Part shown: positions 6,841 to 39,236 of the stretch, piece by piece | Numbering within the stretch: position 1 is the stretch's first letter | Layout of the letters: each line of letters starts with the position of its first letter | NCBI GenBank assembly: GCA_964649995.1 | Contig: CAZYRU010000001.1 | Location: 1 to 39,646, forward strand | DNA: 39,646 nucleotides | DNA from: an uncultured Gammaproteobacteria bacterium | Lineage (GTDB): Bacteria > Patescibacteriota > Microgenomatia > UBA1406 > GWC2-37-13 | Direction of reading: 5' to 3' | Made by a program: the position numbers and the translations under genes | The notes under the pieces: generated by a model | The model's input: only the letters and a program-made list of their open reading frames with translations | The model's database searches: none | What the model was told of the DNA's origin: nothing

Positions 6841-9342
6841 TTAAGATGAGGATGATTCTTGTTTTTCTTCCTGCATTGTCATAGTTTTAGTATTTTCTGC
6901 TTTTTTAGCTGTAGTTTTAGCAACAGTAATTAATTCCTCTTCCTGAAGTATCTCTTGTTTGGTTTTGGCAATGACTGCTTGTTCTTTTTCTATTTCTTCC
7001 TTGACGGTTTTGGCTGCTTCTAGTTTGGCTTTAAGATATACAATAATTTCTTCACCTTTTAGATTATTGATTAAAACAACAGGCAATATATAGGCAAGAT
7101 CATCTAACCCCTGCTGTTTAAGGTTGGGATCTGAGGCAACTAGTTTATTAAGAGTATTGGTAATAAAAACAATATCTTTTTCAATCCATTCTAAACGAGA
7201 TTGAATATTTTCCGATACTGGTACTTCGCCTTTTTGATATTGTTCTTTCCACATCTTTTTGACCTGTTCATAATCTTCCAATGAAATAGAAGGAGGAATA
7301 GTGATTATCTCTTCAATATTTTTTTGAGAAGCAAGAATTAATTTAATTTGGTCAGCAATAATCTCCCTGAGTTGTTTTTCGGGTAGATTAATACCGGTAG
7401 CAGTGTGTTCTAGTAGTTGAGTAAGTTTGGGATTAGTTTTTAGGGAATCGTAGACTAACTGTAAAGTTTTTTCTAATGTTTCTTTATTAAGACTAGTTTT
7501 TTTGGCAATATTCTCTATTACTTCAGTCGCGGGCTGGCTGATATTTTCTTTTAATGAGATAAGCAGTGATTGAGTTTGGGCGGAGGAAAGATGAGTAGTT
7601 TGGGCGATTTCACTAACAAGATCTGCATTTTTAAGCAATGAGTCAACAAAGTAATTATTAATAGCATTAACTTTTTCTGGATTAACTTGAGAGCGATAGG
7701 CGACGACATAATTAATAGCTTTAGAGGTGGGAAGTGTGCTAAGAATCTGCTGTTTTTTTAGAATTTGATCAGAGAGTGAGTTAGAAACCGACAATAAAAT
7801 TTGTCTAGCAGAAGTATCGTTTTTAATAGATCGATGATAAAGTTCGTTTTTTAAATTCATAAACATCTCCTTTTCTTTCGGGGTACTGGCTTGAGTGGGA
7901 TTTTGTAGGTAGCTGAGATTTTTATTCACAGTTTCTTTTACTTGTTTATTGGTTTCATAATTGGCCAAATTAGTTAGTTTAGCGGTAGAGGTAGTAGCAG
8001 TGATAGTTTTTTTTATTTCTTCGGTGGTGATTTTTTTTACCTGCTCTACATTAATCAGTTTTGGCTTAATATTGACATCAATTTCTTTATTAGCTTTTAA
8101 GACTGTTTGTGGAGCAGATTGCAAGGGCGAAATAGGACCTAATTTTCCTCGCAGATGATCATAAATTGAGAGCAAGATATTTTTACTAGTATTAATACCA
8201 TCACAGCAATAATCGCGGAAGATTCGCAATAACCACCAAGGAAGAAAAATTGTTACCCACAGCATAATTAACGAGATTACATATTCCATAAAAGTATCAA
8301 TGTAGTTGCCGTTATTAAGCACAGATAATTTTTGCGCTGGTCCGCCAAAAAGAAGATTTATCCCTGAATAATAAACATAGCCCTTGCTGGTGCCAGCCCG
8401 TGAGAAATTAAAGGTAAAAGGGATGCCTGCTTGCCAAATACGAGCGGTTGCCCCCAAAAATAGAGAAAACAATGGTCCATAAAAAAGCCATTGAAAAAAA
8501 ACCCCTATCCAAATCCAGCCAATATTTTTAATAAAATTAAATAAAAATAATATACCTAGAAAAGGTGAGATTATGATCATACTCCAAAGAATAATTTTGC
8601 GCATAATAAGCATTATTCCCATGACATAGTAGGTAATATTAGTGGTTTTTAAAAGAAAGAGTTCGGTTTGAATAGCTTCTTGTACTTGAAAATTTAAATC
8701 TCGACAGCCAATAAAATCATTATAATTTTTTTCACTACTGGGAATATCGCTAAAATAAATATTAAAGAGTTTGCTACCGCCTAACTTTTCGACAAAAAAA
8801 CGCGAAATAATTTCTGATAATTGAATTAAGATAATTACGATTGTAGCTGAGAAGGTAATATATAAAATCGTTAGACCAATTTTTATCAACCACGGCATTA
8901 TCTTAATATTTAAATTAAAGTTACTTGTTTGCCCAATGATAAAACCAATTCCAACAATTGCGATACTAACTAAAAGAAAGTAATAACTAAGCCTTCTTGT
9001 TACCTGCCAGATGTCTTTAAATATCTGATGATCATCAATGGCATTTTTATTAATTACCCACCAAATAAATTGTCGGGCCCGGTCATTTGCTTTGCCTTGG
9101 GCGGTAATCTCAGGATCATCAATCCAATAATGATTGGCACCAGGATTTTTTAGAAATTCTTCATATGAAGAGACACACTTTTCATTTCTTTGTTTATAAA
9201 TATCAAGTAAATCCGATGGACAGGAATCAAGATAACACTTAGTTGGAGGCAAATTAATATTAATTCGATCAGCTGCTTGTGCTGACGGTAAAGTTAATAA
9301 AAAGGCAATAAGTAAGAAAAACCCAAGAATTATTTTTTTCAT
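6841..9342 (-). CDS. large secreted/polytopic membrane protein (833 aa), unknown function
   Basis: Signal peptide (LLTLPSAQA), a Cys-containing ectodomain, and about 8 TM helices. A helical, low-complexity, Lys/Glu/Gln-rich C-terminal region of about 440 aa follows. 6-nt gap to the cohesin-domain gene upstream. Confidence 0.7.
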   Translation of the reverse strand: MKKIILGFFLLIAFLLTLPSAQAADRININLPPTKCYLDSCPSDLLDIYKQRNEKCVSSYEEFLKNPGANHYWIDDPEITAQGKANDRARQFIWWVINKNAIDDHQIFKDIWQVTRRLSYYFLLVSIAIVGIGFIIGQTSNFNLNIKIMPWLIKIGLTILYITFSATIVIILIQLSEIISRFFVEKLGGSKLFNIYFSDIPSSEKNYNDFIGCRDLNFQVQEAIQTELFLLKTTNITYYVMGIMLIMRKIILWSMIIISPFLGILFLFNFIKNIGWIWIGVFFQWLFYGPLFSLFLGATARIWQAGIPFTFNFSRAGTSKGYVYYSGINLLFGGPAQKLSVLNNGNYIDTFMEYVISLIMLWVTIFLPWWLLRIFRDYCCDGINTSKNILLSIYDHLRGKLGPISPLQSAPQTVLKANKEIDVNIKPKLINVEQVKKITTEEIKKTITATTSTAKLTNLANYETNKQVKETVNKNLSYLQNPTQASTPKEKEMFMNLKNELYHRSIKNDTSARQILLSVSNSLSDQILKKQQILSTLPTSKAINYVVAYRSQVNPEKVNAINNYFVDSLLKNADLVSEIAQTTHLSSAQTQSLLISLKENISQPATEVIENIAKKTSLNKETLEKTLQLVYDSLKTNPKLTQLLEHTATGINLPEKQLREIIADQIKLILASQKNIEEIITIPPSISLEDYEQVKKMWKEQYQKGEVPVSENIQSRLEWIEKDIVFITNTLNKLVASDPNLKQQGLDDLAYILPVVLINNLKGEEIIVYLKAKLEAAKTVKEEIEKEQAVIAKTKQEILQEEELITVAKTTAKKAENTKTMTMQEEKQESSSS

Positions 9343-26224: not shown

Positions 26225-26297
26225 TCCCCTGTAGCTCAATCGGTAGAGCAGGAAGCTGTTAACTTCAAGGTTCCTGGTTCGAGTCCAGGCGGGGGAG
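26225..26297 (+). tRNA. tRNA-Asn (anticodon GUU)
   Basis: Hand-folded 73-nt cloverleaf. Acceptor TCCCCTG/CGGGGGA (one G-U), D stem GCTC/GAGC, anticodon loop CTGTTAA, T arm CCTGG-TTCGAGT-CCAGG, discriminator G. Confidence 0.9.
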
Positions 26298-27764
26298 CTG
26301 AACTTGTCTTAATCTGACCATGTTGGCGGTCTTTAAGGCATTAAGAATTGGTGTAGGCTTGGCTTCAATAATTACTTTATCTTCCACTACAAATCTTTCA
26401 TAAAAGAACCGCAGGTAATGACGTTTAAGCGGGTCTGGTGCGTTCTTGTAAGGTCTTGTAGATGTCTTTAGTGAGAAACAGCGTTTCTTCGATTAAGGGC
26501 ATGTCTAATTTGCCTTCTTCTTCGACTTCTTCAATCTGGGTTTGCAGATTATTAATCTGTTGGGTAATTTCAGCGTGCTTTCTCTTGTAAGTATCCCTAT
26601 CAATTGATTCATCTATGAGCAAATCCTCAAGTTTGTTTCTTTTGCTTTCCAGTCCTGCTCTTTGATTAATCGCATGCCTTGAGTATTCTTTCTGCCTGTA
26701 TTTAGGAAATCTTTTGCCTGTTGTTTTACCTGATTAATGAAATCATCTGTAAACTCAATTTCCTTGATATAGCCTTCGACCTGTTACTCTAAATCTTTAG
26801 CCTGAACATATTTCTGCTTGCAGTCGGGTGAATAACGCTTCTGGCAGTGATAATAATAAACTTTTCGCTTATTGCTTCTGATTGTTGAGACATCACCAAC
26901 TAACCTCATTCCGCAGGTGCAGAAGACAAAACCGCGAAGCAGAAAATCGTACTTTCTTTCTCTTAAAAGAAAATGTCGATGCTTTTCGAGTATGTATTGA
27001 CAGGTGTCAAATAATTGCTTATTTATTAGCGGTGTATGCTTGCCCATTTTCTCTTGTCCGTGCCATCTAATGAGTCCGTAGTAGAACGGATTATTGAGAA
27101 TATTATTGATTCTACTGAAGCTGATAATAGTACCGTTCTTGGAAATAATATTCTTGTCTTTTAACCACTCTTGTAGTGACTGCATTGAGTATTGGCCTGT
27201 TGAATAAAGTTCAAACATCTGCTTAACAATTGGTGCTGTATACGGGTCAGGTTCACAATACTTTCTTTCACCTTCACCGCCTACACTTCGATAACCGATT
27301 GGCGGCGGTGTCGGCTGCCAGCCTGATTTAAACTTTTCCATTAAAGCATCTCTAGTGCGCTGTCCATTAACTTCGCTTTCCCATTGAGCTACTGAAGCAA
27401 AGATATTAGGCACCAAACTTGAACCATTGGATAAGTCGCCTTCTAAGACAGAAATTAAATTAATGCCCTTTTCTTTAAACTCGTTCCAAATTCTTGAGAA
27501 GTCAGTTACGTTTCTTGCAAAGCGGTCAATTTTATAAATCACCACGCAATCAATACCCTTCTTTTTTATCTCTTTGAGCATCTGCTGGAATTCGGGACGA
27601 TTGACTGTTCGGCCTGACTTACCTTCATCAACAAAGACATTTACGAGATGAAGTCCTCTTGTTTTACAGTAGTCAACGATTGAGGCTTTCTGATGGTCAA
27701 GAGAGAAGCCTTCTTCAGCTTGACCTACTGTGCTGACCCTGATATATCCAAATGCTCTTTTCAT
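26265..27764 (-). pseudogene. large serine recombinase (integrase), disrupted
   Basis: Resolvase catalytic domain (AFGYIRVSTVGQ, VVIYKIDRFARN), recombinase domain and a Cys-rich zinc ribbon are intact to 26787. There is an in-frame TAA at 26784-26786 (..AKDLE*QVEGYIKEIEF..). One frameshift lies near 26698-26706 and a second near 26445-26460. The last frame (..KRHYLRFFYERFVVEDKVIIEAKPTPILNALKTANMVRLRQVQLPRLDSNQEP*) ends at 26265, inside tRNA-Asn. Confidence 0.8.
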
Positions 27765-28195: not shown

Positions 28196-28951
28196 TTATC
28201 TTTTAATTTCATAACTAATTAGTAAATTCTTTTGATATTCATCCCAATTGCCATCGAAATAAATCCGCACTATTTCTTTTTCCTGTTCGTCGCTTTCAAT
28301 TTCAATTCTTTCGACGACGTTCTGGTCAATCCATTTCATATCGTCAATAGATAAGTTCAAATCGCTTGCTTCATACATTCTTTGATATTCAGCGTCGTTT
28401 CTAACTGCTTGCCTAATAACCACTACCTTCCTAGAACCAATAGAAGAAGAAACTATAGACTTACCCTTAGAAGAACTTAGAGAGTTTTCGTTAAAATTTG
28501 AGGATTTCAAGGCTAAAGCATCAGAATTTGGGAGAATATTTTCGCTTTTAAGGGGAGAAAACCTGACATTTTCAAGAATAAATTCCTGTGTTTGGTTTGT
28601 TTCTTCGCCGGCAAACTTACTAGCTTCACCGCCCCATTGATTAAGTCCAACTACATACCGAAGTGGAGACTTAACCGTGTATAAATTCCTTTTCTCGTCG
28701 ACTACTTTTATAAATCCCTTAGAAAGAAGTCCATTATGCCAATTTCTAACTGTATCTTCATGTTTATTGAAAACAAGGGCAATTTCGTCAGGAAAGGCCT
28801 CGAAGGAAGCAAACTTATATCCATGAGATTTATCAAAGTCCATCAAATCCAAGTAGTATTCAAATAAGAGGAATTCTTGAGGAGTAAGAATCCTGTTCGT
28901 GATTAGCAACCATCTATTCCTATGACTAGCTCGGTATCCGTTTAACTTCAT
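28196..28951 (-). CDS. hypothetical protein with N-terminal winged-helix (HTH_36-like) domain
   Basis: LTPQEFLLFEYYL...FPDEIALVFNKHEDTVRNWHNGLLSKGFIKVV resembles the wHTH of plasmid/phage replication or regulatory proteins. The C-terminus is acidic. Confidence 0.45.
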   Translation of the reverse strand: MKLNGYRASHRNRWLLITNRILTPQEFLLFEYYLDLMDFDKSHGYKFASFEAFPDEIALVFNKHEDTVRNWHNGLLSKGFIKVVDEKRNLYTVKSPLRYVVGLNQWGGEASKFAGEETNQTQEFILENVRFSPLKSENILPNSDALALKSSNFNENSLSSSKGKSIVSSSIGSRKVVVIRQAVRNDAEYQRMYEASDLNLSIDDMKWIDQNVVERIEIESDEQEKEIVRIYFDGNWDEYQKNLLISYEIKR

Positions 28952-29043
28952 GAGTACATTTTCTCTAGAAGTAAACGGATAAAATATACCGATTGAAAGG
29001 CCTGTTTATGGAATATGCAACTTAGAAGCCGGTAAGTTGCAGG

Positions 29044-29829
29044 TTAAGAAGCAAGCAGTTTCTCGTAGGTTTTAACAGCTTTTAAAACGTCAAGATAGGT
29101 GGTATTTTCTGTTTCGTGCTCTTTTACCCACTCGTTAGCTATCGTGTCATAAGTTTTTCCTTTTATTCTTTCCCAATACCAATGACGATATTTTCTAATG
29201 TTGGGGGCTAAATCAATTCTGGGCTGATAGTAGGACAATCGTTTATCAGTTTTCATTAATTCTTTTGCTTTCCTAAATTCTTCTTTTACGTCTTCGTAGG
29301 TTGAAGTGGGAGAAACAAAAATAGCTACTGGTGGCAAGGTAACGCCGAACCACAGAGAATTAGGTTCAATTACTTCTGCCTTTGTTGGATTAAAATCATC
29401 GCCTGAAACTATACCGCAATATATGGCTTGTCCGATTACATTATAAAAATATGGTGGTCGGTTAAACTCAAAGCATATAAGATAACATTCGTTTTCAAAT
29501 ACAATGGGGTAATCATTTTCTCCTTGAATTTCTTCATAGAAGTCGGGTAAGGATTCTTTTAAACTTTTAACTCTAGCATATTTGGATAAATTCATCTTTG
29601 TAAATCCTTTATCAGATAGTTCCATTAAAATATCAAAGTTTTTATCATTGCACTCGTCGAAAGGAATAAGGTTAACGAAACCATACTCTCTTCTTAGGAG
29701 GGGAAGTAAATTAAGAAATGCGGGTTTGTCAAACAGTAATGCGAGTTCTTGATAATTAATATCCTTATTACAACGAATATCAATCTTTAAATCCTGAAGA
29801 TAGGTTTTATCATTTTTTTTAATTTTCAT
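29044..29829 (-). CDS. hypothetical protein (261 aa)
   Basis: Long ORF with a good SD (AGGAGAAT before the ATG). No family recognised. Confidence 0.5.
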   Translation of the reverse strand: MKIKKNDKTYLQDLKIDIRCNKDINYQELALLFDKPAFLNLLPLLRREYGFVNLIPFDECNDKNFDILMELSDKGFTKMNLSKYARVKSLKESLPDFYEEIQGENDYPIVFENECYLICFEFNRPPYFYNVIGQAIYCGIVSGDDFNPTKAEVIEPNSLWFGVTLPPVAIFVSPTSTYEDVKEEFRKAKELMKTDKRLSYYQPRIDLAPNIRKYRHWYWERIKGKTYDTIANEWVKEHETENTTYLDVLKAVKTYEKLLAS

Positions 29830-29852
29830 AATTCTCCTGTTACTATTTTACT

Positions 29853-29877
29853 AAAAAAAGCCATCAGTTACGATGGC
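29853..29877 (-). terminator. rho-independent terminator candidate
   Basis: On the minus strand, GCCATC-GTAACT-GATGGC is followed by TTTTTTT, about 40 nt downstream of the stop of gene 29917..30351. Confidence 0.45.
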
Positions 29878-29916
29878 CCACATAGATAAAAAGGCCGCAG
29901 TGAAATTAATTATTGA

Positions 29917-30351
29917 TTAGTTGTTTGGTTGTAGCTGCAGTTCTGTTTGACAGTTGGGCGTACTGCAATTTAAGTCTAATTTTATTTTCTCATCAACTGT
30001 TTGGCTACCGATATTCAAATTTCCCTGACTCTCTGTGTAAAATGTTGTATTGCTTGTTCCGCTTTCAATTGACAACTGACCATTGCTTAGAGATTGGTTT
30101 AACAGACGGCCTTCTAACTGTTTTATCCTTTCTTCCAGTTCAGCGACTTTCTTTTCAAGTTCAGCAATTCTTGAGTCGTGGTTTTCAACTCTGCCTGTTA
30201 ATACTGCTAAAGCACTCTGAAATGGTTTGATTGCCTGGGAAAACCAGACAGGTATTGGCAGTTCAAATAGTTTCTGTTTGGCCTGAACCGAAGGAGTGAA
30301 AGTAAAGAGTAGTGTGCCGATTAAAACAGTAGAAATGATTATCTTTCTCAT
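29917..30351 (-). CDS. secreted coiled-coil protein (144 aa)
   Basis: Signal peptide MRKIIISTVLIGTLLFTFTPSVQA, a heptad-like segment RIAELEKKVAELEERIKQLEGRL, and C-terminal Cys residues. Confidence 0.55.
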   Translation of the reverse strand: MRKIIISTVLIGTLLFTFTPSVQAKQKLFELPIPVWFSQAIKPFQSALAVLTGRVENHDSRIAELEKKVAELEERIKQLEGRLLNQSLSNGQLSIESGTSNTTFYTESQGNLNIGSQTVDEKIKLDLNCSTPNCQTELQLQPNN

Positions 30352-30470: not shown

Positions 30471-30692
30471 ATGTCTAAAACCACTAGGGAGACTTTGAGA
30501 AGTCTTGGAAAGAAGGTGCAGAAATTAAGGAAGCAGAAAGGATTCACTCAAGAAGACTTAGCTCATGAGTTGGGAATTTCTAGAGTTTACATGGGTTACA
30601 TCGAACAAGGCAGAGAAAGTCCATCTCTAAAACTTTTGATGAAGATAGCTAGGAAATTCGGTGTTAGCGTTGAGGATTTATTCCACAGATAG
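30471..30692 (+). CDS. XRE-family HTH regulator (possible R-M controller protein)
   Basis: 73 aa. LRKQKGFTQEDLAHELGISRVYMGYIEQGRESPSLKLLMKIARKFGVSVEDLF. Size and pattern resemble C proteins, and it sits next to the R-M locus. Confidence 0.7.
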   Translation: MSKTTRETLRSLGKKVQKLRKQKGFTQEDLAHELGISRVYMGYIEQGRESPSLKLLMKIARKFGVSVEDLFHR

Positions 30693-30729: not shown

Positions 30730-31656
30730 CTAGATATGTTTAACCTTGAAATCTTGCATTTCTAACTGTTCGCTCGCTTCAAGGCGTTTAATCATTAATT
30801 TATAGTATTCTTTTTCTTTCTCTATAGCAATATATCTTCTCTTATATCTATGGACAACTAACGGTAGTGTTCCACTTCCGGCAAACGGGTCAATGATAAT
30901 ATCATTTTCTTTAGTTGCACCAAGAACAAACCTTTTAATTATTTCTAAAGGCTTTTGCGTTGGGTGTTTACCGTGTTTTCTCTCAATTGTGGGTGTTCCC
31001 GGTATATCCCACATATTTCGCATTTGTAGGTTCAGTGTTTTTAAATCAGGATTGCCACAAAAGGGACAATATGAGAAGTCTGATTCAAGTGTTTTTTTAC
31101 ACTTGTCGCATTTCTTAACTCCATTTAATTTCTTGAGCGTTTCATAGTTAAACACCCAATTCTTTGCATCCTTTTGAGAATTATTGACCGCCCAAATCAC
31201 AAATTCAGTGCTATCGCAGAGCATGCGGTGAGTTATATTAGGGAAAGCATTTCTCTTATACCAAGTAATAAAATTAAGTATTTTCTTTTCTTCTTGTTCC
31301 AAGACTGAAGCGATTTTAAAGATATTGTGATGACTACCAAATATAATGATGTTTCCGTTGGGCTTAACAATTCTAAATATTTCTTTTAACCAAGCTCGAG
31401 TGAAATCTTCATATGTCTTGTTTGAGAAACTATCCCATTTCTCATCAATCTTTGTAAAATTCTTCTTTTTAGTCCAATAATTATTAGATTTCAACCATCC
31501 GATTTTCTTCTTACCATCATATCCAGAGATATTATAAGGTGGGTCTGTTATACAGTGGTCTACAGAATGATTAGAAATTGAAGAAAATATTAATAGGCAA
31601 TCATTGAGGATAAGGTTATTATCTAGCTTGGGATTATAATTTACTGAAGTTTTCAT
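30730..31656 (-). CDS. beta-class N6-adenine/N4-cytosine DNA methyltransferase with Cys4 ribbon insertion
   Basis: Motif IV CITDPPYNISG lies N-terminal. HPTQKPLEII and motif I IIIDPFAGSGTLPLV lie C-terminal (PF01555-type order). Insert CDKCKK...YCPFCG. Confidence 0.85.
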   Translation of the reverse strand: MKTSVNYNPKLDNNLILNDCLLIFSSISNHSVDHCITDPPYNISGYDGKKKIGWLKSNNYWTKKKNFTKIDEKWDSFSNKTYEDFTRAWLKEIFRIVKPNGNIIIFGSHHNIFKIASVLEQEEKKILNFITWYKRNAFPNITHRMLCDSTEFVIWAVNNSQKDAKNWVFNYETLKKLNGVKKCDKCKKTLESDFSYCPFCGNPDLKTLNLQMRNMWDIPGTPTIERKHGKHPTQKPLEIIKRFVLGATKENDIIIDPFAGSGTLPLVVHRYKRRYIAIEKEKEYYKLMIKRLEASEQLEMQDFKVKHI

Positions 31657-31738
31657 AAATTTTTACTCCGACTCTTTAAGACAGCACTATGTTAAAATAT
31701 CTACAACCATTTTATCAAATTTGGTATCTTGTTTAACT

Positions 31739-32713
31739 ATGGATAAAGATTTAGGCCATCTTATCAAAAGACTTGCTGAAATACAGAATGAATTATTCAG
31801 AAGATATGGAATTGAAGATATCTATTCAAGTAGTAAAATCTTTGAGATATTAATCTCGGATAGACTCAATCATATTTTACTTCCTTGTCATGCTGGTTCA
31901 AGGGATGGAAAAGATGCTTGCGGAGATTACGAATATAAACACTATAAAGAGTCGAGCTCAAACCATACATGGACGTTTAACGATTTCAGTGATACGACTA
32001 TTGAGAAACTCAAACATTGCTATGCAGTAATATTTGCCCATATTGAAGACCAAAGAGAGTTTCCAGAATTTGATTGGTTTTATCAAGTTCCGGGGACAAC
32101 TATCAGTAACTATCTTAAACAAGCAACCATTAAAATACAGAATACGAGGAAGATGATAAATGTGAGTCCTTCTCAAATTGAAAATGTAATGGGGATAAAG
32201 AGATGCTATACGAAGGATGTTTCCTGCAAACATTTATATACCGATTACTTAAAAGAAATATTTTCTATAGCCAGACAGATAGAGAAGATAGTCGGAACTA
32301 AGGATATTTTAACCAGTAACAAATTGTGGGAAATACTAGTTTCGTTAGAGACGGGACATAAAATACTATCTGAGCAAAAGGAGCACGACGCAGTTGATGG
32401 GAATGGTGAATTTTACGAGTATAAAGTAGCCAGGAATTATTCTTGGAACTTTGAGGATATTTCACCAAATGTCCTATCGAAATTTAAGAAAGAAAGGGCT
32501 ATAATTTTAGCAACTATTAACAAGAAGGAAATGAAGGTAGTGAAGATATATTCTGCTGAACCACATAAAGTGATTAAAAGGCTAGAAGAAAAACTAGAAG
32601 AAAGAAGACTCCGTTTTCTGAATCAGGGTAAAACAGTAAGAAGACTGCAGGTATCATTAAGTTTAAACGACCTTGCAAGAGTTGGAGCTACGCAGACGTA
32701 CCCGCAAAGTTAA
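31739..32713 (+). CDS. tandem-duplicated PvuII-like PD-(D/E)xK restriction endonuclease (two subunit-size halves in one chain)
   Basis: Two homologous halves of about 160 aa: KIFEILIS...RDGKDACGDYEYKH...WTFNDFSDTTIEKLK and KLWEILVS...HDAVDGNGEFYEYKV...WNFEDISPNVLSKFK. The second matches my recollection of the PvuII catalytic segment NDAVDNAGQEYELKS (D-x9-E-x-K). Flanked by two methyltransferases. First ATG is 31739; the ORF track opens at TTG 31721. Confidence 0.6.
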   Translation: MDKDLGHLIKRLAEIQNELFRRYGIEDIYSSSKIFEILISDRLNHILLPCHAGSRDGKDACGDYEYKHYKESSSNHTWTFNDFSDTTIEKLKHCYAVIFAHIEDQREFPEFDWFYQVPGTTISNYLKQATIKIQNTRKMINVSPSQIENVMGIKRCYTKDVSCKHLYTDYLKEIFSIARQIEKIVGTKDILTSNKLWEILVSLETGHKILSEQKEHDAVDGNGEFYEYKVARNYSWNFEDISPNVLSKFKKERAIILATINKKEMKVVKIYSAEPHKVIKRLEEKLEERRLRFLNQGKTVRRLQVSLSLNDLARVGATQTYPQS

Positions 32714-33414
32714 AATAACGTAGTAGGTGTCATTTCTATGCGTTTAGTCGCAAGTTTGCAGTATTCTTTATCTATTTCAAATCCTATAAAGTTTCTTTTT
32801 AAGAGTTTACACGCAACAGCAGTTGTTCCGCTACCCATAAAAGGGTCAATAACTAAATCTCCCTTATCTGTTGTTAATTCAATTAATTTCTTCATTAATT
32901 CTAAAGGCTTTTGCGTTGGGTGTATTCTATCTTTTCCTTTGGGAGCTTGGAATTTAAAGATATTATGTTCATAGTTGCTATTCCAGGTCGCCCCAGGCAT
33001 TTTACCTACTACTGCAACCTCCCAAGCGTTTAGAAATCTGCTTTTAGCATTTAAGGGTAGGGGGTCTGGTTTCTGCCAAACAATTGCATCAACGGCAATA
33101 AATCCATCGTGTTCTAATGCATTCCAGTAAACTCCTAAATCTTTCTTTGCACAGAAAGAAATAAACCACCCTTTTATCTTTGGAATTGCTATTTCTAACC
33201 ATTTCTTATTAAATTTATCCCATTCCCCAAATTCGAAATCCAACTTTGCTGTTGTTCCAAGTCGTTTTCCTTTACAGTTAAGCTTCTTGCTAATTCCGTA
33301 GGGAGGGTCTGCAATCAATAAGTCTATTGAATTATCAGGAAGTTTTTTTAATCCCTCTATACAATCAACACATTGAATCGTATTCAACCAGGTTTTAATA
33401 ATATCGTCTTTCAT
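32710..33414 (-). CDS. beta-class N6-adenine/N4-cytosine DNA methyltransferase
   Basis: LIADPPYGISK (motif IV), HPTQKPLELM, and VIDPFMGSGTTAVA (motif I). 2-nt gap after lexA. 4-nt convergent overlap with the nuclease gene. Confidence 0.85.
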   Translation of the reverse strand: MKDDIIKTWLNTIQCVDCIEGLKKLPDNSIDLLIADPPYGISKKLNCKGKRLGTTAKLDFEFGEWDKFNKKWLEIAIPKIKGWFISFCAKKDLGVYWNALEHDGFIAVDAIVWQKPDPLPLNAKSRFLNAWEVAVVGKMPGATWNSNYEHNIFKFQAPKGKDRIHPTQKPLELMKKLIELTTDKGDLVIDPFMGSGTTAVACKLLKRNFIGFEIDKEYCKLATKRIEMTPTTLF

Positions 33415-33416
33415 TA

Positions 33417-34028
33417 TTAAATTGGATTATTTCTAATTAATCCCTTAAAGACACCTCTAATTTCTAATCTGTCTGGAAATATTGGTTTGTACTTTGGATT
33501 CTTTGGCTGTAAATATGGTTTTCCATCTTTATATTTTAACTGTTTAAGCGTTGCCCCATCTTCTGTCACTGCAACAACTGTATCATTGACATCAGCTGTA
33601 AATTGATGCTTAACTACGATTATATCCTTATCCCAGATGCCGTCTTCTATCATACTGTTGCCTTTAACTTTAAGGGCATAGTAATTTCCTCTATTGGTAA
33701 TCATGGTTCTTGGGACCTTAATTGGTTCAGGATTTTCTATCGGTTCAATCGGAATGCCGGCGGCTATAAATCCCAGCATGGGGATTTCTACTGTTTCGGG
33801 TGACTCTTCAAATAATGATACGCCTCTTGGTTGGTATTCCTCTTTCTTTAAGTACCCCTTAGTTTTAAGGGCATTGACGTGCTGATGGACCGTTGAGACT
33901 GCCAAACTAAATTTGCCACCAATTTCTTCTAAGGAGGGAGCATAACCTTTCTTACCGGTAAATGAGGTTATAAAATCAAGTATTTCCTTCTGCTTAGGAG
34001 TGAGAGTCCTCTTGATTATTTTATTCAT
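33417..34028 (-). CDS. lexA: LexA-type repressor (S24 self-cleaving)
   Basis: LexA DNA-binding wHTH (LTPKQKEILDFI..GYAPSLEEIGGKFSL.STVHQHVNALKTKGYLKK), Ala-Gly cleavage site (FIAAGIPIE), catalytic Ser (VKGNSMIEDGI) and Lys (GATLKQLKY). Confidence 0.85.
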   Translation of the reverse strand: MNKIIKRTLTPKQKEILDFITSFTGKKGYAPSLEEIGGKFSLAVSTVHQHVNALKTKGYLKKEEYQPRGVSLFEESPETVEIPMLGFIAAGIPIEPIENPEPIKVPRTMITNRGNYYALKVKGNSMIEDGIWDKDIIVVKHQFTADVNDTVVAVTEDGATLKQLKYKDGKPYLQPKNPKYKPIFPDRLEIRGVFKGLIRNNPI

Positions 34029-34048
34029 CTATATTATTATAATACCGA

Positions 34049-34071
34049 AACTGTTACGAAAGTCAACAGTT
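34049..34071. promoter_or_regulatory. palindromic operator candidate in the lexA / four-gene-operon divergent promoter region
   Basis: Perfect inverted repeat AACTGTT-N9-AACAGTT (34049-34055 / 34065-34071). It lies just downstream of a plus-strand TATAAT (34038-34043) and overlaps a TAAAAT (34071-34076). Confidence 0.45.
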
Positions 34072-34096: not shown

Positions 34097-34417
34097 GTGA
34101 GCATGATGGCAGAAACAGCGGCACATCAACGAGCGAAAGCTAAAGCGGCCGGAAAAGGCGGTGCTAAAGAAGTTAAAATCGGTCGAAAAAGAGTTGACGC
34201 GCTCACTGCTTCCAAGAAAAGAGTTACGGAAGTAGAACGAAGCGGCGACACGAGGTCTTTAAGGGCCGCCGCCAGGAGACTGAAAGCGGCCAAAGCTCCA
34301 CAGAAGGTCTTGCAAGTTCCCAATCAAGACATGCTCAAGGCGAAGGAGGCCATGAAGTTCGAAAAGGTCAAAGGTACGGTTAAAAACATGGCCGGCACTA
34401 AACGCATTTCTGTTTAA
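34097..34417 (+). CDS. small basic Ala/Lys/Arg-rich protein (about 104-106 aa), unknown function
   Basis: First gene of the operon divergent from lexA. A G-rich SD (GGGGGG) precedes ATG 34103. Noticeably GC-rich. The stretch GRKRVDALTASKKRVTEVERSG weakly recalls minimal D...E-x-K nuclease cores (speculative). Confidence 0.5.
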   Translation: MSMMAETAAHQRAKAKAAGKGGAKEVKIGRKRVDALTASKKRVTEVERSGDTRSLRAAARRLKAAKAPQKVLQVPNQDMLKAKEAMKFEKVKGTVKNMAGTKRISV

Positions 34418-34440: not shown

Positions 34441-34674
34441 ATGAAATTAAACGATTTTCTTTCTGTTAACAGGTATTACAGGATGGATAATCATCAACTC
34501 GAACTCGAGGCGGCCAAATATAAAATTGGTGGTTATGGAATAGATGATAGAGTGGTGAGGGAAAGGATAATCGAACAATTATTAGAGAAAGACAAGGCTA
34601 ACAACTCCAGATATGCGATATTTATTTCACTTGTGGCACTAAGCGTTAGTATTCTCGTATTAATAATTAAATAG
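34441..34674 (+). CDS. small tail-anchored membrane protein (77 aa)
   Basis: Soluble N-terminal part and a single C-terminal TM helix (YAIFISLVALSVSILVLIIK). GAGGAG SD upstream. 23-nt gap after the preceding gene. Confidence 0.45.
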   Translation: MKLNDFLSVNRYYRMDNHQLELEAAKYKIGGYGIDDRVVRERIIEQLLEKDKANNSRYAIFISLVALSVSILVLIIK

Positions 34675-34710: not shown

Positions 34711-35919
34711 GTGATAACTAAAGACGAAATTGACCAGAAGGCAAAGGAATATCAGATAAATCCCCCCGATGTTGAGAAGGATTACATCTTCAGCTGGCTG
34801 TTAAACGCCATATATAGTCAATCATCTTTAAACAATCTTCTTATCTTAAAAGGCGGCAACGGGTTAAGGAAGGTTTATCTCCCCAATACTCGCTTTTCTA
34901 AAGATTTAGATTTCTCGGTAGAACAACAAATAGACATGGTTTTTCTGCGTGATGAGCTAAATAAAATTTGTTCTGCTGTAAGCGAGCAGACGAGTGTTAA
35001 ATTTGAACTTGACAGAACTCTCGTTAGGCCTAAGGATATTCCTGTTGCCAGCAATGACATTCTGGAGGCCCGTTTGTATTTCAAGGGATTTTACGGCGAA
35101 GAAACTATTTCTCTTAAAACCCAGCTCGATATTACTCAGTTTGATAAATTATATCTGCCGGTTCAGTCTAAACAGTTGATTCACCCATATTCGGATAAGG
35201 ATAAATGCGTATCCAGTGTAAAATGTCAGAAGGCAGAAGAAATACTTGCCTCAAAGCTAAACTGTTTACTGCATCGAAGGAAAGTTGCCGACCTGTTTGA
35301 CTTGCTGTACTCAATATTATTCTCAAAGGATTTTCCGGTAAACAGGCTTGAAGTTGTCACTACTTTCTTAAAGAAATCGGTATATGAAGCGATGCCGGGC
35401 TCGGCTAAACAGCAATTACTGGGAGTCCAGCTTGAAGAATATCGACCATTCTGGGATACATTAATTGCCCCAGTTACCAGTATTTTCAAATTTGATGTTG
35501 TGATAAACAACTTTAATCAATTGATAGAAAATTTATTCAGCCTTATTTCTCCTCCTCCGCCTCGTCCTGCCTTTGTGACCCATTATAGTTCTCCCCGAAG
35601 TTATATTGGTGGTTTTAGCAGTTATCATCCTTCACCTGTCTACTTTTCTTCAGATATTAGGGGCACAATTATTAATGCCGGCAGGTCAAGAACTATGGTG
35701 GAATTGTTATATGATGGCTACGAAAGATTGGTTGAGCCGTATTCTATGGAATACTATGTTCGAAAAAAAGACGGGGTGGGTATGGAATATTTCTGGGGAT
35801 ACGATACATCAGGCGGTAAATCAGGAGAACGCTCTATCAAAAGATTTATTTGCGATAAGATTCAATCTGTCCGGTCAACAAATTATGGTTTTAGTCCTCG
35901 TTATGAGGTTGAGTTTTAA
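34711..35919 (+). CDS. AbiEii/DUF1814-family nucleotidyltransferase fused to a C-terminal WYL-like domain
   Basis: N-terminus VEKDYIFSWLL...LILKGGNGLRKVYLPNTRFSKDLDFSV is the AbiEii (PF08843) signature, including the GG...DxD NTase motif. The C-terminus LLYDGYERLVEPYSMEYYV...MEYFWGYD...IKRFICDKIQSVRST..FSPRYEVE follows the WYL-domain pattern. GTG start. Confidence 0.7.
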   Translation: MITKDEIDQKAKEYQINPPDVEKDYIFSWLLNAIYSQSSLNNLLILKGGNGLRKVYLPNTRFSKDLDFSVEQQIDMVFLRDELNKICSAVSEQTSVKFELDRTLVRPKDIPVASNDILEARLYFKGFYGEETISLKTQLDITQFDKLYLPVQSKQLIHPYSDKDKCVSSVKCQKAEEILASKLNCLLHRRKVADLFDLLYSILFSKDFPVNRLEVVTTFLKKSVYEAMPGSAKQQLLGVQLEEYRPFWDTLIAPVTSIFKFDVVINNFNQLIENLFSLISPPPPRPAFVTHYSSPRSYIGGFSSYHPSPVYFSSDIRGTIINAGRSRTMVELLYDGYERLVEPYSMEYYVRKKDGVGMEYFWGYDTSGGKSGERSIKRFICDKIQSVRSTNYGFSPRYEVEF

Positions 35920-35921
35920 AT

Positions 35922-36794
35922 ATGCGACCAAAGGTTAATATCATTCAAGCTAAATCAATCTTTACTAAATCAGGATTGCCTGGTTCTGATTGGGTGATTA
36001 ACCCCTATAATGGCTGTTTATTCGGTTGTATGTATTGTTATGCGGCACAAATTGCTCGCTGGAAACATCCAGATGAAGAATGGGGAACATATTTAGATGT
36101 TAAAATAAATGCCCCTGAATTGTTAAAAAATGAACTTGAGAGATTAGAAAAGAGATTAAAGACAAAAGACTTTGGTTCTGTTTTCTTCAGTTCGGTGACT
36201 GACCCTTATGTTGGAATGGAGGCTAAATATCAACTTACTAGGAAATGCTTAGAAGTTTTAGCCAATTTCGGTTATGAAGGAAACGTTTCTATTCAAACAA
36301 AGTCGCCATTAGTAACAAAAGACATTGACGTTTTACAGAGATTAAAAGACGTAGCGGTAGGCTTTACCGTAACAACTCTTGATGATAAAGTTTCAAGGTT
36401 TCTGGAAGTTAAAGCTCCGCCAGTAAGTTCAAGAATGCAAGCACTGAAAGAACTGCATGAATCAGGAATACCAACTTATACGTTTATCGGTCCAATTCTG
36501 CCCCATTTTACCAGTGATGAAAAGAAAATTAACGAGCTTCTAGATAAACTTCAGGAAGTTGGTATTAAGGAAGTTTGGTTTGAACATATTAATTTGAGTC
36601 CAAAGATAAAAGCAAGATTATTTGATTTCCTTAGGAAAGAGTCACCTGAATTATTGCCAGAATTTGAAAAAGCAGACACGGAAGAATATCGAAGTAGATT
36701 GGAAGACGTTATTCATGAAGCCATGAAGGGGAGAAATTTAAAGATGGGATTGGGTAAGGTAATCCACCATAGAAAATTGCCCAAGAAGAATTGA
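35922..36794 (+). CDS. radical SAM protein, SplB/COG1533 (spore-photoproduct-lyase-like) family
   Basis: INPYNGCLFGCMYCYAAQ is a CX3CX2C cluster in the context typical of COG1533. TIM-barrel-like length of 290 aa. 2-nt gap after the AbiEii-like gene. Confidence 0.7.
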   Translation: MRPKVNIIQAKSIFTKSGLPGSDWVINPYNGCLFGCMYCYAAQIARWKHPDEEWGTYLDVKINAPELLKNELERLEKRLKTKDFGSVFFSSVTDPYVGMEAKYQLTRKCLEVLANFGYEGNVSIQTKSPLVTKDIDVLQRLKDVAVGFTVTTLDDKVSRFLEVKAPPVSSRMQALKELHESGIPTYTFIGPILPHFTSDEKKINELLDKLQEVGIKEVWFEHINLSPKIKARLFDFLRKESPELLPEFEKADTEEYRSRLEDVIHEAMKGRNLKMGLGKVIHHRKLPKKN

Positions 36795-38426: not shown

Positions 38427-39236
38427 ATGAGAAAATTGCCGATAATTACTCGGAAATCACTGCTTTATAAAAGCGGGGTGGAATACACTGATTACTGCAT
38501 AAACCATGTCGAAGGCTGTTCGCATGGTTGTAGATTCCCTTGTTACGCGATGATGATGGCGATGAGAAGCGGACGGATTAAAGGTTATCAGGATTGGATT
38601 AAACCGAAGTTAGTAGGAAATGCTTTAGAACTGCTTGAGAAAGAAATCCCCCGACACAAGCACAAGATAAAGTTCGTCCATCTCTGTTTCAGCACCGACC
38701 CCTTTATGTACCAACAACCGGAAGTAACAGCAATGACCCTAAAGATTCTCGCCAGATTGCATAAAGATAATATCCGTTGTACGTTGTTGACTAAAGGAAT
38801 TTATCCTGAAGAATTATTGGATAAAACTACTTATGGTAAAGATAACGAATATGGAATCACCCTTATTTCCTTAGATGATGAGTTTAAAAGGAGATTTGAA
38901 CCTTACAGTGCTTCCTATCCACAAAGGATTGCCGGATTAAGAAAACTCCATGAGGCAGGCTTTAAAACTTGGGTTAGCATTGAACCATATCCCACTCCCA
39001 ATATTGTTGTTCAAGATTTAAACAAGATTCTATCGGCTGTCTCGTTTGTTGCCAAAATTATCTTTGGCAAATGGAATTACAGCCGGCTTTCCTCTGAATA
39101 TAAAGGGAGAGAACAATATTATGATAATTGTGCAGAAATAGTGACCTCCTTTTGCAAAAGAGAAAATATTGACTGCCATATCAAGTTTGGAACCAGAACC
39201 AGCAAGAAATATTTTGGGCTGTACCCCGTATACTAA
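38427..39236 (+). CDS. SplB/COG1533-like radical SAM-related protein with atypical Cys spacing
   Basis: Aligns by eye with gene 35922..36794: KSGV..D.CIN..EGC vs KSGLPGSDWVINPYNGC, FSTDPF vs SSVTDPY, and LRKLHEAGF vs LKELHESGI. The cluster motif is CSHGCRFPCYA (CX3CX3C). Confidence 0.55.
   Translation: MRKLPIITRKSLLYKSGVEYTDYCINHVEGCSHGCRFPCYAMMMAMRSGRIKGYQDWIKPKLVGNALELLEKEIPRHKHKIKFVHLCFSTDPFMYQQPEVTAMTLKILARLHKDNIRCTLLTKGIYPEELLDKTTYGKDNEYGITLISLDDEFKRRFEPYSASYPQRIAGLRKLHEAGFKTWVSIEPYPTPNIVVQDLNKILSAVSFVAKIIFGKWNYSRLSSEYKGREQYYDNCAEIVTSFCKRENIDCHIKFGTRTSKKYFGLYPVY

Follow-up and report, generated by a model that had tools for sequence, protein, structure and literature searches.

A natural single-chain, tandem-duplicated PvuII-like nuclease flanked by two DNA methyltransferases: a probable restriction-modification system for an asymmetric target

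Restriction enzymes of Type IIT contain two different catalytic sites, can be single-chain, act on asymmetric sites and come with two methyltransferases, which are separate or joined (PMC4081073). Among the single-chain enzymes that combine two catalytic sites with a pair of methyltransferases, also called 'class II', are Mva1269I, BsmI, BsrI and BtsCI; Mva1269I harbors one canonical PD-(D/E)XK site and one non-canonical site (PMC3017599). BsrBI, BssSI, AciI and BmgBI have also been given as single-chain two-site enzymes (PMC4081073). A locus with a nuclease of two predicted catalytic sites and two methyltransferases was analyzed at positions 30730 to 33414 of contig CAZYRU010000001.1 (assembly GCA_964649995.1), whose full stretch of 39,646 nucleotides is referred to as the window. 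Whereas the published single-chain Type IIT enzymes combine unrelated domains, the two domains of this nuclease, designated R, are paralogous copies of one PvuII-like unit. In this respect R resembles the engineered single-chain PvuII (scPvuII; Protein Data Bank (PDB) entry 3KSK), which is likewise one chain of about 324 residues with two PvuII-fold units in tandem and a D...ExK motif in both. However, scPvuII is man-made, with identical halves, a short linker and the palindromic target CAGCTG, whereas R is natural and its halves have diverged.

The PvuII subunit is a single domain of about 157 amino acids that functions as a homodimer at a palindromic site and is accompanied by one N4-cytosine methyltransferase, whereas R is a 324-amino-acid tandem of two diverged units with two DPPY methyltransferases. 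Natural fusions that involve a PvuII-type nuclease have been described as C-REase proteins (CR.NsoJS138I and others); these consist of a regulator joined to one PvuII unit, retain dimerization and cut CAGCTG (PMC3850674). In contrast, two nuclease units are fused in R, and a helix-turn-helix (HTH) protein is encoded by a separate gene. The heterodimeric Type IIT enzymes BbvCI and Bpu10I share with R related but different units of similar size, two methyltransferases and, as predicted for R, a division of labor in which each unit reads a portion of an asymmetric site and cuts one strand (PMC4081073). Their subunits are separate polypeptides, whereas the units of R are fused. The methyltransferases of BbvCI and Bpu10I are C5-cytosine enzymes, and neither nuclease is known to have a PvuII-like fold. 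Monomeric LAGLIDADG endonucleases such as I-SceI and I-AniI likewise correspond to a duplicated and fused homodimer subunit with diverged halves and asymmetric targets, but differ from R in their unrelated fold and chemistry, the lack of a modification partner and long, degenerate targets; two-site monomers are mentioned in PMC3017599. For BmgBI the review mentions two domains similar in size, both with a role in recognition as well as in catalysis, but cites no source (PMC4081073), and BmgBI can be compared with R by that description only. In the literature on BmgBI, BsrBI, AjiI, BtrI and natural tandem or pseudo-dimeric restriction enzymes only the unreferenced remarks of the review were found, and a search for a natural PvuII-fold tandem returned no published description. 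The synthetic single-chain PvuII is the sole tandem form cited in a 2013 survey of PvuII relatives (PMC3850674).

Three intact genes from the list of open reading frames (ORFs) fill the locus, encoding the methyltransferase M1, the nuclease R and the methyltransferase M2 (Table 1). M1 and R are divergently oriented across the intergenic spacer, whereas R and M2 are convergent and overlap by 4 base pairs (bp). The start of R was placed at the ATG at position 31739 rather than at the upstream TTG at 31721, which would give a protein of 330 amino acids (six residues more), because of the N-termini of the homologs in the alignment. A preliminary description of this DNA, made from the sequence alone, had reported the gene set and its coordinates, and all features were found as placed.

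Table 1. Positions of the restriction-modification genes and of neighbouring features in the window.
Feature	Position	Strand	Description
M1	30730-31656	-	308-aa beta-class DPPY DNA methyltransferase, CcrM/HinfI-like, with Cys4 zinc-ribbon insert
Nuclease R	31739-32713	+	324-aa single-chain tandem PvuII-like PD-(D/E)XK restriction endonuclease, as predicted from ORF, model and homologs
R half 1, aa 1-162	31739-32224	+	D56 31904-31906, E65 31931-31933, K67 31937-31939
R half 2, aa 163-324	32225-32710	+	D217 32387-32389, E227 32417-32419, K229 32423-32425
M2	32710-33414	-	234-aa beta-class DPPY DNA methyltransferase, M1.HpyAVI-like
M1-R spacer	31657-31738	.	82-bp divergent intergenic region; presumed promoters
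HTH gene	30471-30692	+	73-aa Xre/HTH_3 protein, possible controller (C) protein
LexA-type repressor	33417-34028	-	HTH plus S24 peptidase
Promoter-like site upstream of lexA	34039-34066	-	TTGACT-16-TATTAT; 16-nt box TTCGTAACAGTTTCGG at 34045-34060
tRNA-Asn	26225-26298		
Large serine recombinase	26784-27764	-	
AbiEii-like nucleotidyltransferase toxin	34711-35919	+	PADLOC AbiEii 3.6e-49, Pfam 3.3e-19
Two radical SAM proteins	35922-36794 and 38427-39236	+	

R is a natural tandem-duplicated PvuII-like single-chain protein. Its two halves align with each other in BLASTP (E=1e-12, 33% identity over 95 amino acids), the identity between them being 24-33%, and profiles of the halves align over 153 columns with an HHalign probability of 99% (E=4.1e-17). 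The profiles were derived from an alignment of 38 homologs that are 50-77% identical to the window protein. Half 1 contains the motif SRD56-x8-E65-Y-K67, and half 2 the motif HD217AVDGNGEFYE227YK229, which corresponds to D-x9-E-x-K. Residues E65, K67, D217, E227 and K229 are invariant among the 38 homologs, and D56 is conserved in at least 90% of them. Two conserved D...ExK triads in non-identical halves thus amount, on the sequence, to two predicted catalytic sites in one polypeptide. The preliminary description had proposed the tandem duplication and one PD-(D/E)xK motif per half (D-x8-EYK and D-x9-E-x-K), and had considered that one half might prove to lack catalytic residues on careful alignment. 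The alignments bear out the duplication, and both triads are retained.

In sequence, the likeness of R to PvuII is weak but specific. The top PDB sequence match was the engineered scPvuII (phmmer E=0.0044; E=3e-4 with the family profile). The motif of half 2 aligns with NDAVDNAGQEYELK of PvuII, that is, with D58, E68 and K70, and half 1 aligns with PvuII residues 21-70 via the family profile. Half 2 is also matched by the PADLOC REase_II model PDLC03536 (E=1.6e-7). This model of 237 positions, which was presumably built from C-REase fusions, matches the HTH protein of the window (positions 11-70) as well as R half 2 (104-197).

The AlphaFold2 model of R, for which the 38-sequence alignment served as input, has a mean predicted local distance difference test score (pLDDT) of 91.4 and a predicted template-modelling score (pTM) of 0.85. 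In a Foldseek comparison with the PDB the model matched 3KSK first (E=1e-14, 336 columns, template-modelling (TM) score 0.64-0.66). PvuII monomers came next, with E=5e-7 to 6.5e-5, probability 1.00 and target-normalised TM scores of 0.62-0.71, and the Foldseek alignments show R to be about 19-21% identical to PvuII. The modelled fold of R is strongly supported as superimposable on that of PvuII. As the full-length match is to 3KSK, which comprises two PvuII subunits in the native dimer arrangement, the predicted packing of the halves of R is that of the PvuII dimer. The likeness to PvuII had originally been put forward in the preliminary description, together with an intramolecular PvuII-like dimer to be examined by folding the structure. 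It proved to be real, and the confident model matches single-chain PvuII over the whole chain.

The two halves have retained a common core and differ in a conserved manner elsewhere. Among 153 aligned half-1/half-2 positions, assessed at a conservation threshold of 90%, 12 are conserved and do not differ between the halves, among them the two triads, K33/K195, E36/E198, W78/W236, F80/F238, D82/D240 and R137/R302. At 11 of the 153 positions the residue is conserved in each half yet different between them (e.g. S32/N194, H68/V230, M139/Q304 and N141/S306), and 17 positions are conserved in one half only, such as N75, H76 and N135 of half 1 and R301 of half 2. Several of the half-specific residues are located in three segments that align with DNA-reading elements of PvuII. 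The first is xNSK in half 1 versus TSNK in half 2 (PvuII D34 region), the second SSSNHTWTFND versus xxSWNFQD (PvuII S81-H85) and the third IxNxRKMINVS versus GKxxRRLQVSLS (PvuII N140/N141). D34, S81-H85 and N140/N141 are taken here to be the contact residues of PvuII, with which the title of PDB entry 3PVI agrees. Fixed differences of this kind would be the pattern expected of two different half-site readers. The separately conserved residues of each half and the PvuII-dimer-like model agree with the earlier view of R as a covalent pseudo-heterodimer with diverged halves.

M1 and M2 both match the Pfam family PF01555 (N6_N4_Mtase; cut-off 26.7 bits), with E=3.6e-46 and 158.3 bits for M1 and E=6.1e-42 and 144.5 bits for M2. 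The DPPY motif (residues 38-41 of M1, 36-39 of M2) is located ahead of the FxGSG motif (FAGSG, residues 258-262 of M1; FMGSG, residues 192-196 of M2), which indicates the motif order of beta-class enzymes. The best PDB matches were CcrM (6PBD, 2.9e-38) for M1 and M1.HpyAVI (5HEK, 3e-38) for M2; M.PvuII (1BOO), an N4-cytosine methyltransferase, is only a distant match to either. The two proteins belong to separate orthologous groups, with scores of about 60 bits across and 300-580 bits within the groups, 310-480 bits within that of M2. M1 orthologs adjoin R in most loci. A DPPY rather than an SPPY/F motif is typical of adenine methyltransferases. Because both proteins contain DPPY and their closest solved relatives, CcrM and M1.HpyAVI, are adenine enzymes, M1 and M2 most likely produce N6-methyladenine (m6A). 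M1 additionally harbors a Cys4 insert (CDKC-x10-CPFC, residues 183-200, positions 31057-31110) in its variable middle region. The insert occurs in eight of 41 M1-like proteins of other loci, all from Patescibacteria and about 296-308 amino acids long, and is a lineage-specific feature of a sub-clade; a ninth match to the pattern, in a fused 779-amino-acid protein of locus L029, stands in a different context. Two different beta-class DPPY methyltransferases, one of them with a Cys4 ribbon, therefore flank R as first described.

Members of the R family are widespread. At 90% clustering and E<=1e-3 the family comprises 548 members of about 325 amino acids. Nearly all of the best 120 of these homologs are 313-341 amino acids long, and every name given by the source is 'hypothetical protein'. 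Clustering at 50% leaves 69 representatives, of which the full-length ones have 314-338 amino acids. A scan of species-representative genomes yielded 66 loci. Hosts include Patescibacteria, DPANN archaea, Nitrosopumilus, Clostridia, Lachnospiraceae, Cytophagales, Prochlorococcus/Synechococcus, Pelagibacter and others, and the carriers among Lachnospiraceae and Clostridia include the cultured Bovifimicola, Petralouisia and Flintibacter. No model of NCBIfam matches the window protein or five homologs from other lineages. A search of a plasmid collection returned no R homolog. A single match was obtained in a phage collection, in the 8.2-kb 'Bacteriophage sp.' contig MT836948.1 from human faeces (unannotated, 7380-8201); it shows 41.5% identity across 87% of the query and is truncated by the end of the contig.

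Across the 66 loci R is paired with two methyltransferase modules, separate or fused, in most cases with enough flanking sequence. Four arrangements occur: R is located between M1-like and M2-like genes, beside M1-like and M2-like genes in tandem, beside one protein of 780-905 amino acids with two DPPY motifs, or beside a protein of about 970 amino acids that joins D12-class and N6_N4 modules. DPPY is present in every examined M1-like, M2-like and fused module. In two loci from Cytophagales (L059, 4965-5997; L061, 4974-6237) R is broken up into two ORFs, probably as a pseudogene, and the adjoining fused two-DPPY methyltransferase is intact, which is the usual decay pattern of restriction-modification (R-M) systems. 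Large serine recombinases adjoin M2 in L007 and L013; together with the patchy spread over phyla this fits a mobile R-M module.

More distant relatives were also observed. P0186 (323 amino acids, L067 1039-2010) is a tandem PvuII-like protein with D...EYK in both halves and is the only one to pass the cut-off of the Pfam family PF09225 (Endonuc-PvuII), with 27.9 bits. P0182 (303 amino acids, L070-L072) is a tandem relative whose halves differ in this motif, EYK versus EYL, and P0183 (145 amino acids, L068 and L069) is a single-domain relative that shares the short L068 contig with a DUF3310 gene. No methyltransferase was seen on the short contigs of P0186 (4.4 kb), P0182 and P0183, which are too short to compare one with two methyltransferases.

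From the duplication, the predicted fold, the retention of the two conserved triads and the presence of two linked methyltransferases in loci of many phyla we infer that the locus probably encodes a Type II R-M system of the Type IIT/IIA kind, in which a single-chain pseudo-heterodimer would act on an asymmetric site and one adenine methyltransferase would protect each strand. The gene for a PvuII-like subunit would have been duplicated and fused, giving one polypeptide that folds upon itself as a pseudo-dimer, arranged like the PvuII homodimer, and forms a PvuII-like clamp. Each half would cut one strand with its own site, D56/E65/K67 or D217/E227/K229, at or near the centre of the target. 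As different residues have become fixed in the putative DNA-reading segments of each half, the diverged halves may read two non-identical half-sites, and the target would then be asymmetric and probably pseudo-palindromic. The strands of an asymmetric site differ, so two methyltransferases would be needed for protection, with M1 and M2 each methylating adenine on one strand. The preliminary description had suggested an asymmetric target; this proposal is strengthened, short of proof, by the linkage to two modules across phyla and by the half-specific residues. Mutation of one site can convert Type IIT enzymes into nickases (PMC4081073). Such a conversion is a standard property of the type and not new with R.

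Several observations weigh against this assignment. The window protein has no match to PF09225 at E<=0.1, and the homolog P0033 reaches 21.5 bits, below the gathering cut-off of 25, the precomputed Pfam matches on R homologs being lenient. The DNA-contact positions of R were placed by weak hidden Markov model alignments to PvuII rather than by a structure with DNA. In a few loci the fetched flank shows a single recognisable methyltransferase. Two m6A methyltransferases serve the palindrome GATC in the DpnII and MboI systems, and by this analogy two methyltransferases do not strictly imply asymmetry. Finally, avoidance of 4-, 5- and 6-mers was scanned with Markov models from order 1 to maximal in the window, in 250 kb of loci with separate M1 and M2 and in 340 kb of other loci, and no robust asymmetric candidate site emerged from the window and these 590 kb of related loci. 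Two asymmetric candidates were considered and rejected. CACGTC, the BmgBI sequence, occurs 28 times in the pooled set versus about 29 expected, and GCAGC is depleted under high-order models only, and in the window plus group A only.

The alternative that survives best, although it is unlikely, is that a palindromic site is still read. The halves would then have drifted neutrally with equivalent contacts, and the methyltransferases would be redundant or specialized for double- and single-stranded DNA, as DpnII exemplifies. Palindromes are served by two methyltransferases in the DpnII and MboI systems, the best PDB match of M2, 5HEK, is deposited as 'DpnA', and some lineages pair D12-class and N6_N4 modules like DpnM/DpnA. 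GATC is moreover the most depleted 4-mer of the window, with an observed/expected ratio of 0.61. However, the ratio varies from 0 to 1.3 across R-bearing loci and does not track the system, and GATC was rejected as the target. R shows no similarity to the DpnII family in Pfam or NCBIfam, where it matches nothing beyond weak PvuII-type entries, and its predicted fold is PvuII-like. Different residues are fixed in the putative recognition segments of each half across phyla, which neutral drift under symmetry would not give. For a palindrome a homodimer would suffice, and there would be no selection to keep a 324-amino-acid fusion in hundreds of lineages. As an observation on its own, GATC is absent or nearly so over about 10 kb in several loci and present at the expected frequency in others (L003, L033, L059, L053, L034 and L061 were noted). 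This points to a separate GATC-directed restriction pressure in some hosts, unconnected with the R family.

A reading in which one half alone is catalytic, and the other is a DNA-binding or effector pseudo-nuclease of the Sau3AI type, so that the enzyme nicks or needs two molecules, is less probable still. Pseudo-dimeric enzymes with one inactive domain such as Sau3AI exist, and the spacing from D to E is one residue shorter in half 1 (x8 versus x9). Nevertheless, the residues of the two D/E/K triads vary little or not at all across the family, each half can be aligned with the catalytic region of PvuII, and the model matches the PvuII dimer geometry with both sites facing the DNA. It is most improbable of all that R is a modification-dependent or repair nuclease of PvuII-like fold located among methyltransferases by chance on a mobile island. 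In its favor, the methyl-directed enzymes NhoI and Eco15I are among the fold matches (E ~1e-3 to 5e-4), the probable island carries a serine recombinase and an AbiEii-like gene, and P0186 has no methyltransferase on its 4.4-kb contig. Against it, the linkage of R to two methyltransferase modules is close and ancient, spans many phyla and extends to overlapping genes. A methyl-directed nuclease would be toxic to its host when encoded beside methyltransferases of its own. In some lineages the beginning of R is overlapped by a C-protein gene in the layout of classical R-M control, and R pseudogenes are located beside an intact methyltransferase in L059 and L061.

Two putative regulatory genes accompany the probable Type II system. 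The HTH protein matches Pfam HTH_3 (5.5e-16), PADLOC Control_protein (1e-12) and, in the PDB, C.AhdI (1.6e-7) and C.BclI (5e-7). Its gene is convergent with M1 and located just beyond it, not upstream of R, and it is kept in the two Microgenomates genomes L001 and L002. The beginning of R is overlapped by a gene for a C-like HTH protein in L025-27 and L031-33. No convincing C-box-like repeat was found upstream of the HTH gene or in the spacer between R and M1. This spacer contains only weak promoter-like matches, and their number in the region is no higher than in shuffles.

The LexA-type gene exceeds the cut-off of the NCBIfam model TIGR00498 lexA (156.6 versus 110.95 bits). It ends 2 bp upstream of the start of M2 on the same strand, and the two genes are probably co-transcribed. 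lexA is also located next to M2 on the same strand in L001 (6686-7378), L002 (6686-7297), L015 (6746-7390) and L020 (6745-7392), and next to M2 but divergent in L004 (2737-3333). In three loci of Parcubacteria/Liptonbacteria (L022, 5963-7297; L039, 5960-7294; L056, 5963-7297) lexA is fused in frame to the N-terminal end of M2. In the fusion protein of 444 amino acids the LexA DNA-binding domain covers about residues 2-63, the S24 peptidase about 75-192 and the methyltransferase 240-432. In the promoter scan the site upstream of lexA was the best of the region, with 10 of 12 positions matched. The 16-nucleotide box TTCGTAACAGTTTCGG within it is shared without change by the lexA upstream regions of the window, L001 and L002 and is present only once in the window; no second copy was found near R or M1. 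By its sequence and position it may be an autoregulatory LexA box. An SOS-linked control of M2 is speculative; if true, damage from under-methylation could raise methyltransferase expression in a self-protecting feedback loop. If functional, the LexA link would be a new mode of R-M control.

The R-M system probably rides an integrated island, in which a tRNA-Asn gene is followed by the large serine recombinase (Table 1). The block from about 28.2 kb to lexA is common to the two Microgenomates genomes, and the sequence past lexA is not. Several ORFs at 28196-30351 have no significant family match, some of them being common to L001 and L002. The AbiEii-like gene just past lexA represents a second defence or toxin-antitoxin gene and is not common to L001 and L002. 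No AbiEi antitoxin domain was recognised; the upstream ORF at 34097-34417 has no family match, and the one at 34441-34674 was outside the scan. The first of the two radical SAM proteins has a spore-photoproduct-lyase-like match (PF20903, 5.7e-7) and, near the lexA region, may be a DNA repair lyase.

The single-chain two-site Type IIT class with two methyltransferases and the engineered scPvuII are already known. New are the natural internal duplication of a PvuII-fold unit, which provides a natural counterpart of scPvuII, and a large family annotated as 'hypothetical', of which REBASE may hold a characterised member. A wider claim can be put forward only tentatively: that R represents the first recognised natural single-chain duplicated PvuII-fold family, with a new asymmetric specificity, missed by annotation and defence-finder models and, in some lineages, with M2 coupled to a LexA-type, SOS-cleavable repressor. 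Because NCBIfam misses the tested members and the Pfam and PADLOC matches are weak or below threshold, R-M surveys of candidate phyla, DPANN archaea and marine plankton undercount the R family, of which over 500 members remain after clustering at 90%. The architecture of R is the one that protein engineers built artificially in scPvuII. With 324 amino acids R offers a compact scaffold with two separable predicted active sites and two separately evolving recognition halves, which might be used for strand-specific nickases and for the study of changes in half-site specificity. If the proposed reading of R is true, restriction enzymes took the same route as the LAGLIDADG endonucleases, in which a subunit is duplicated, fused and diverged and thereby escapes the palindrome constraint.

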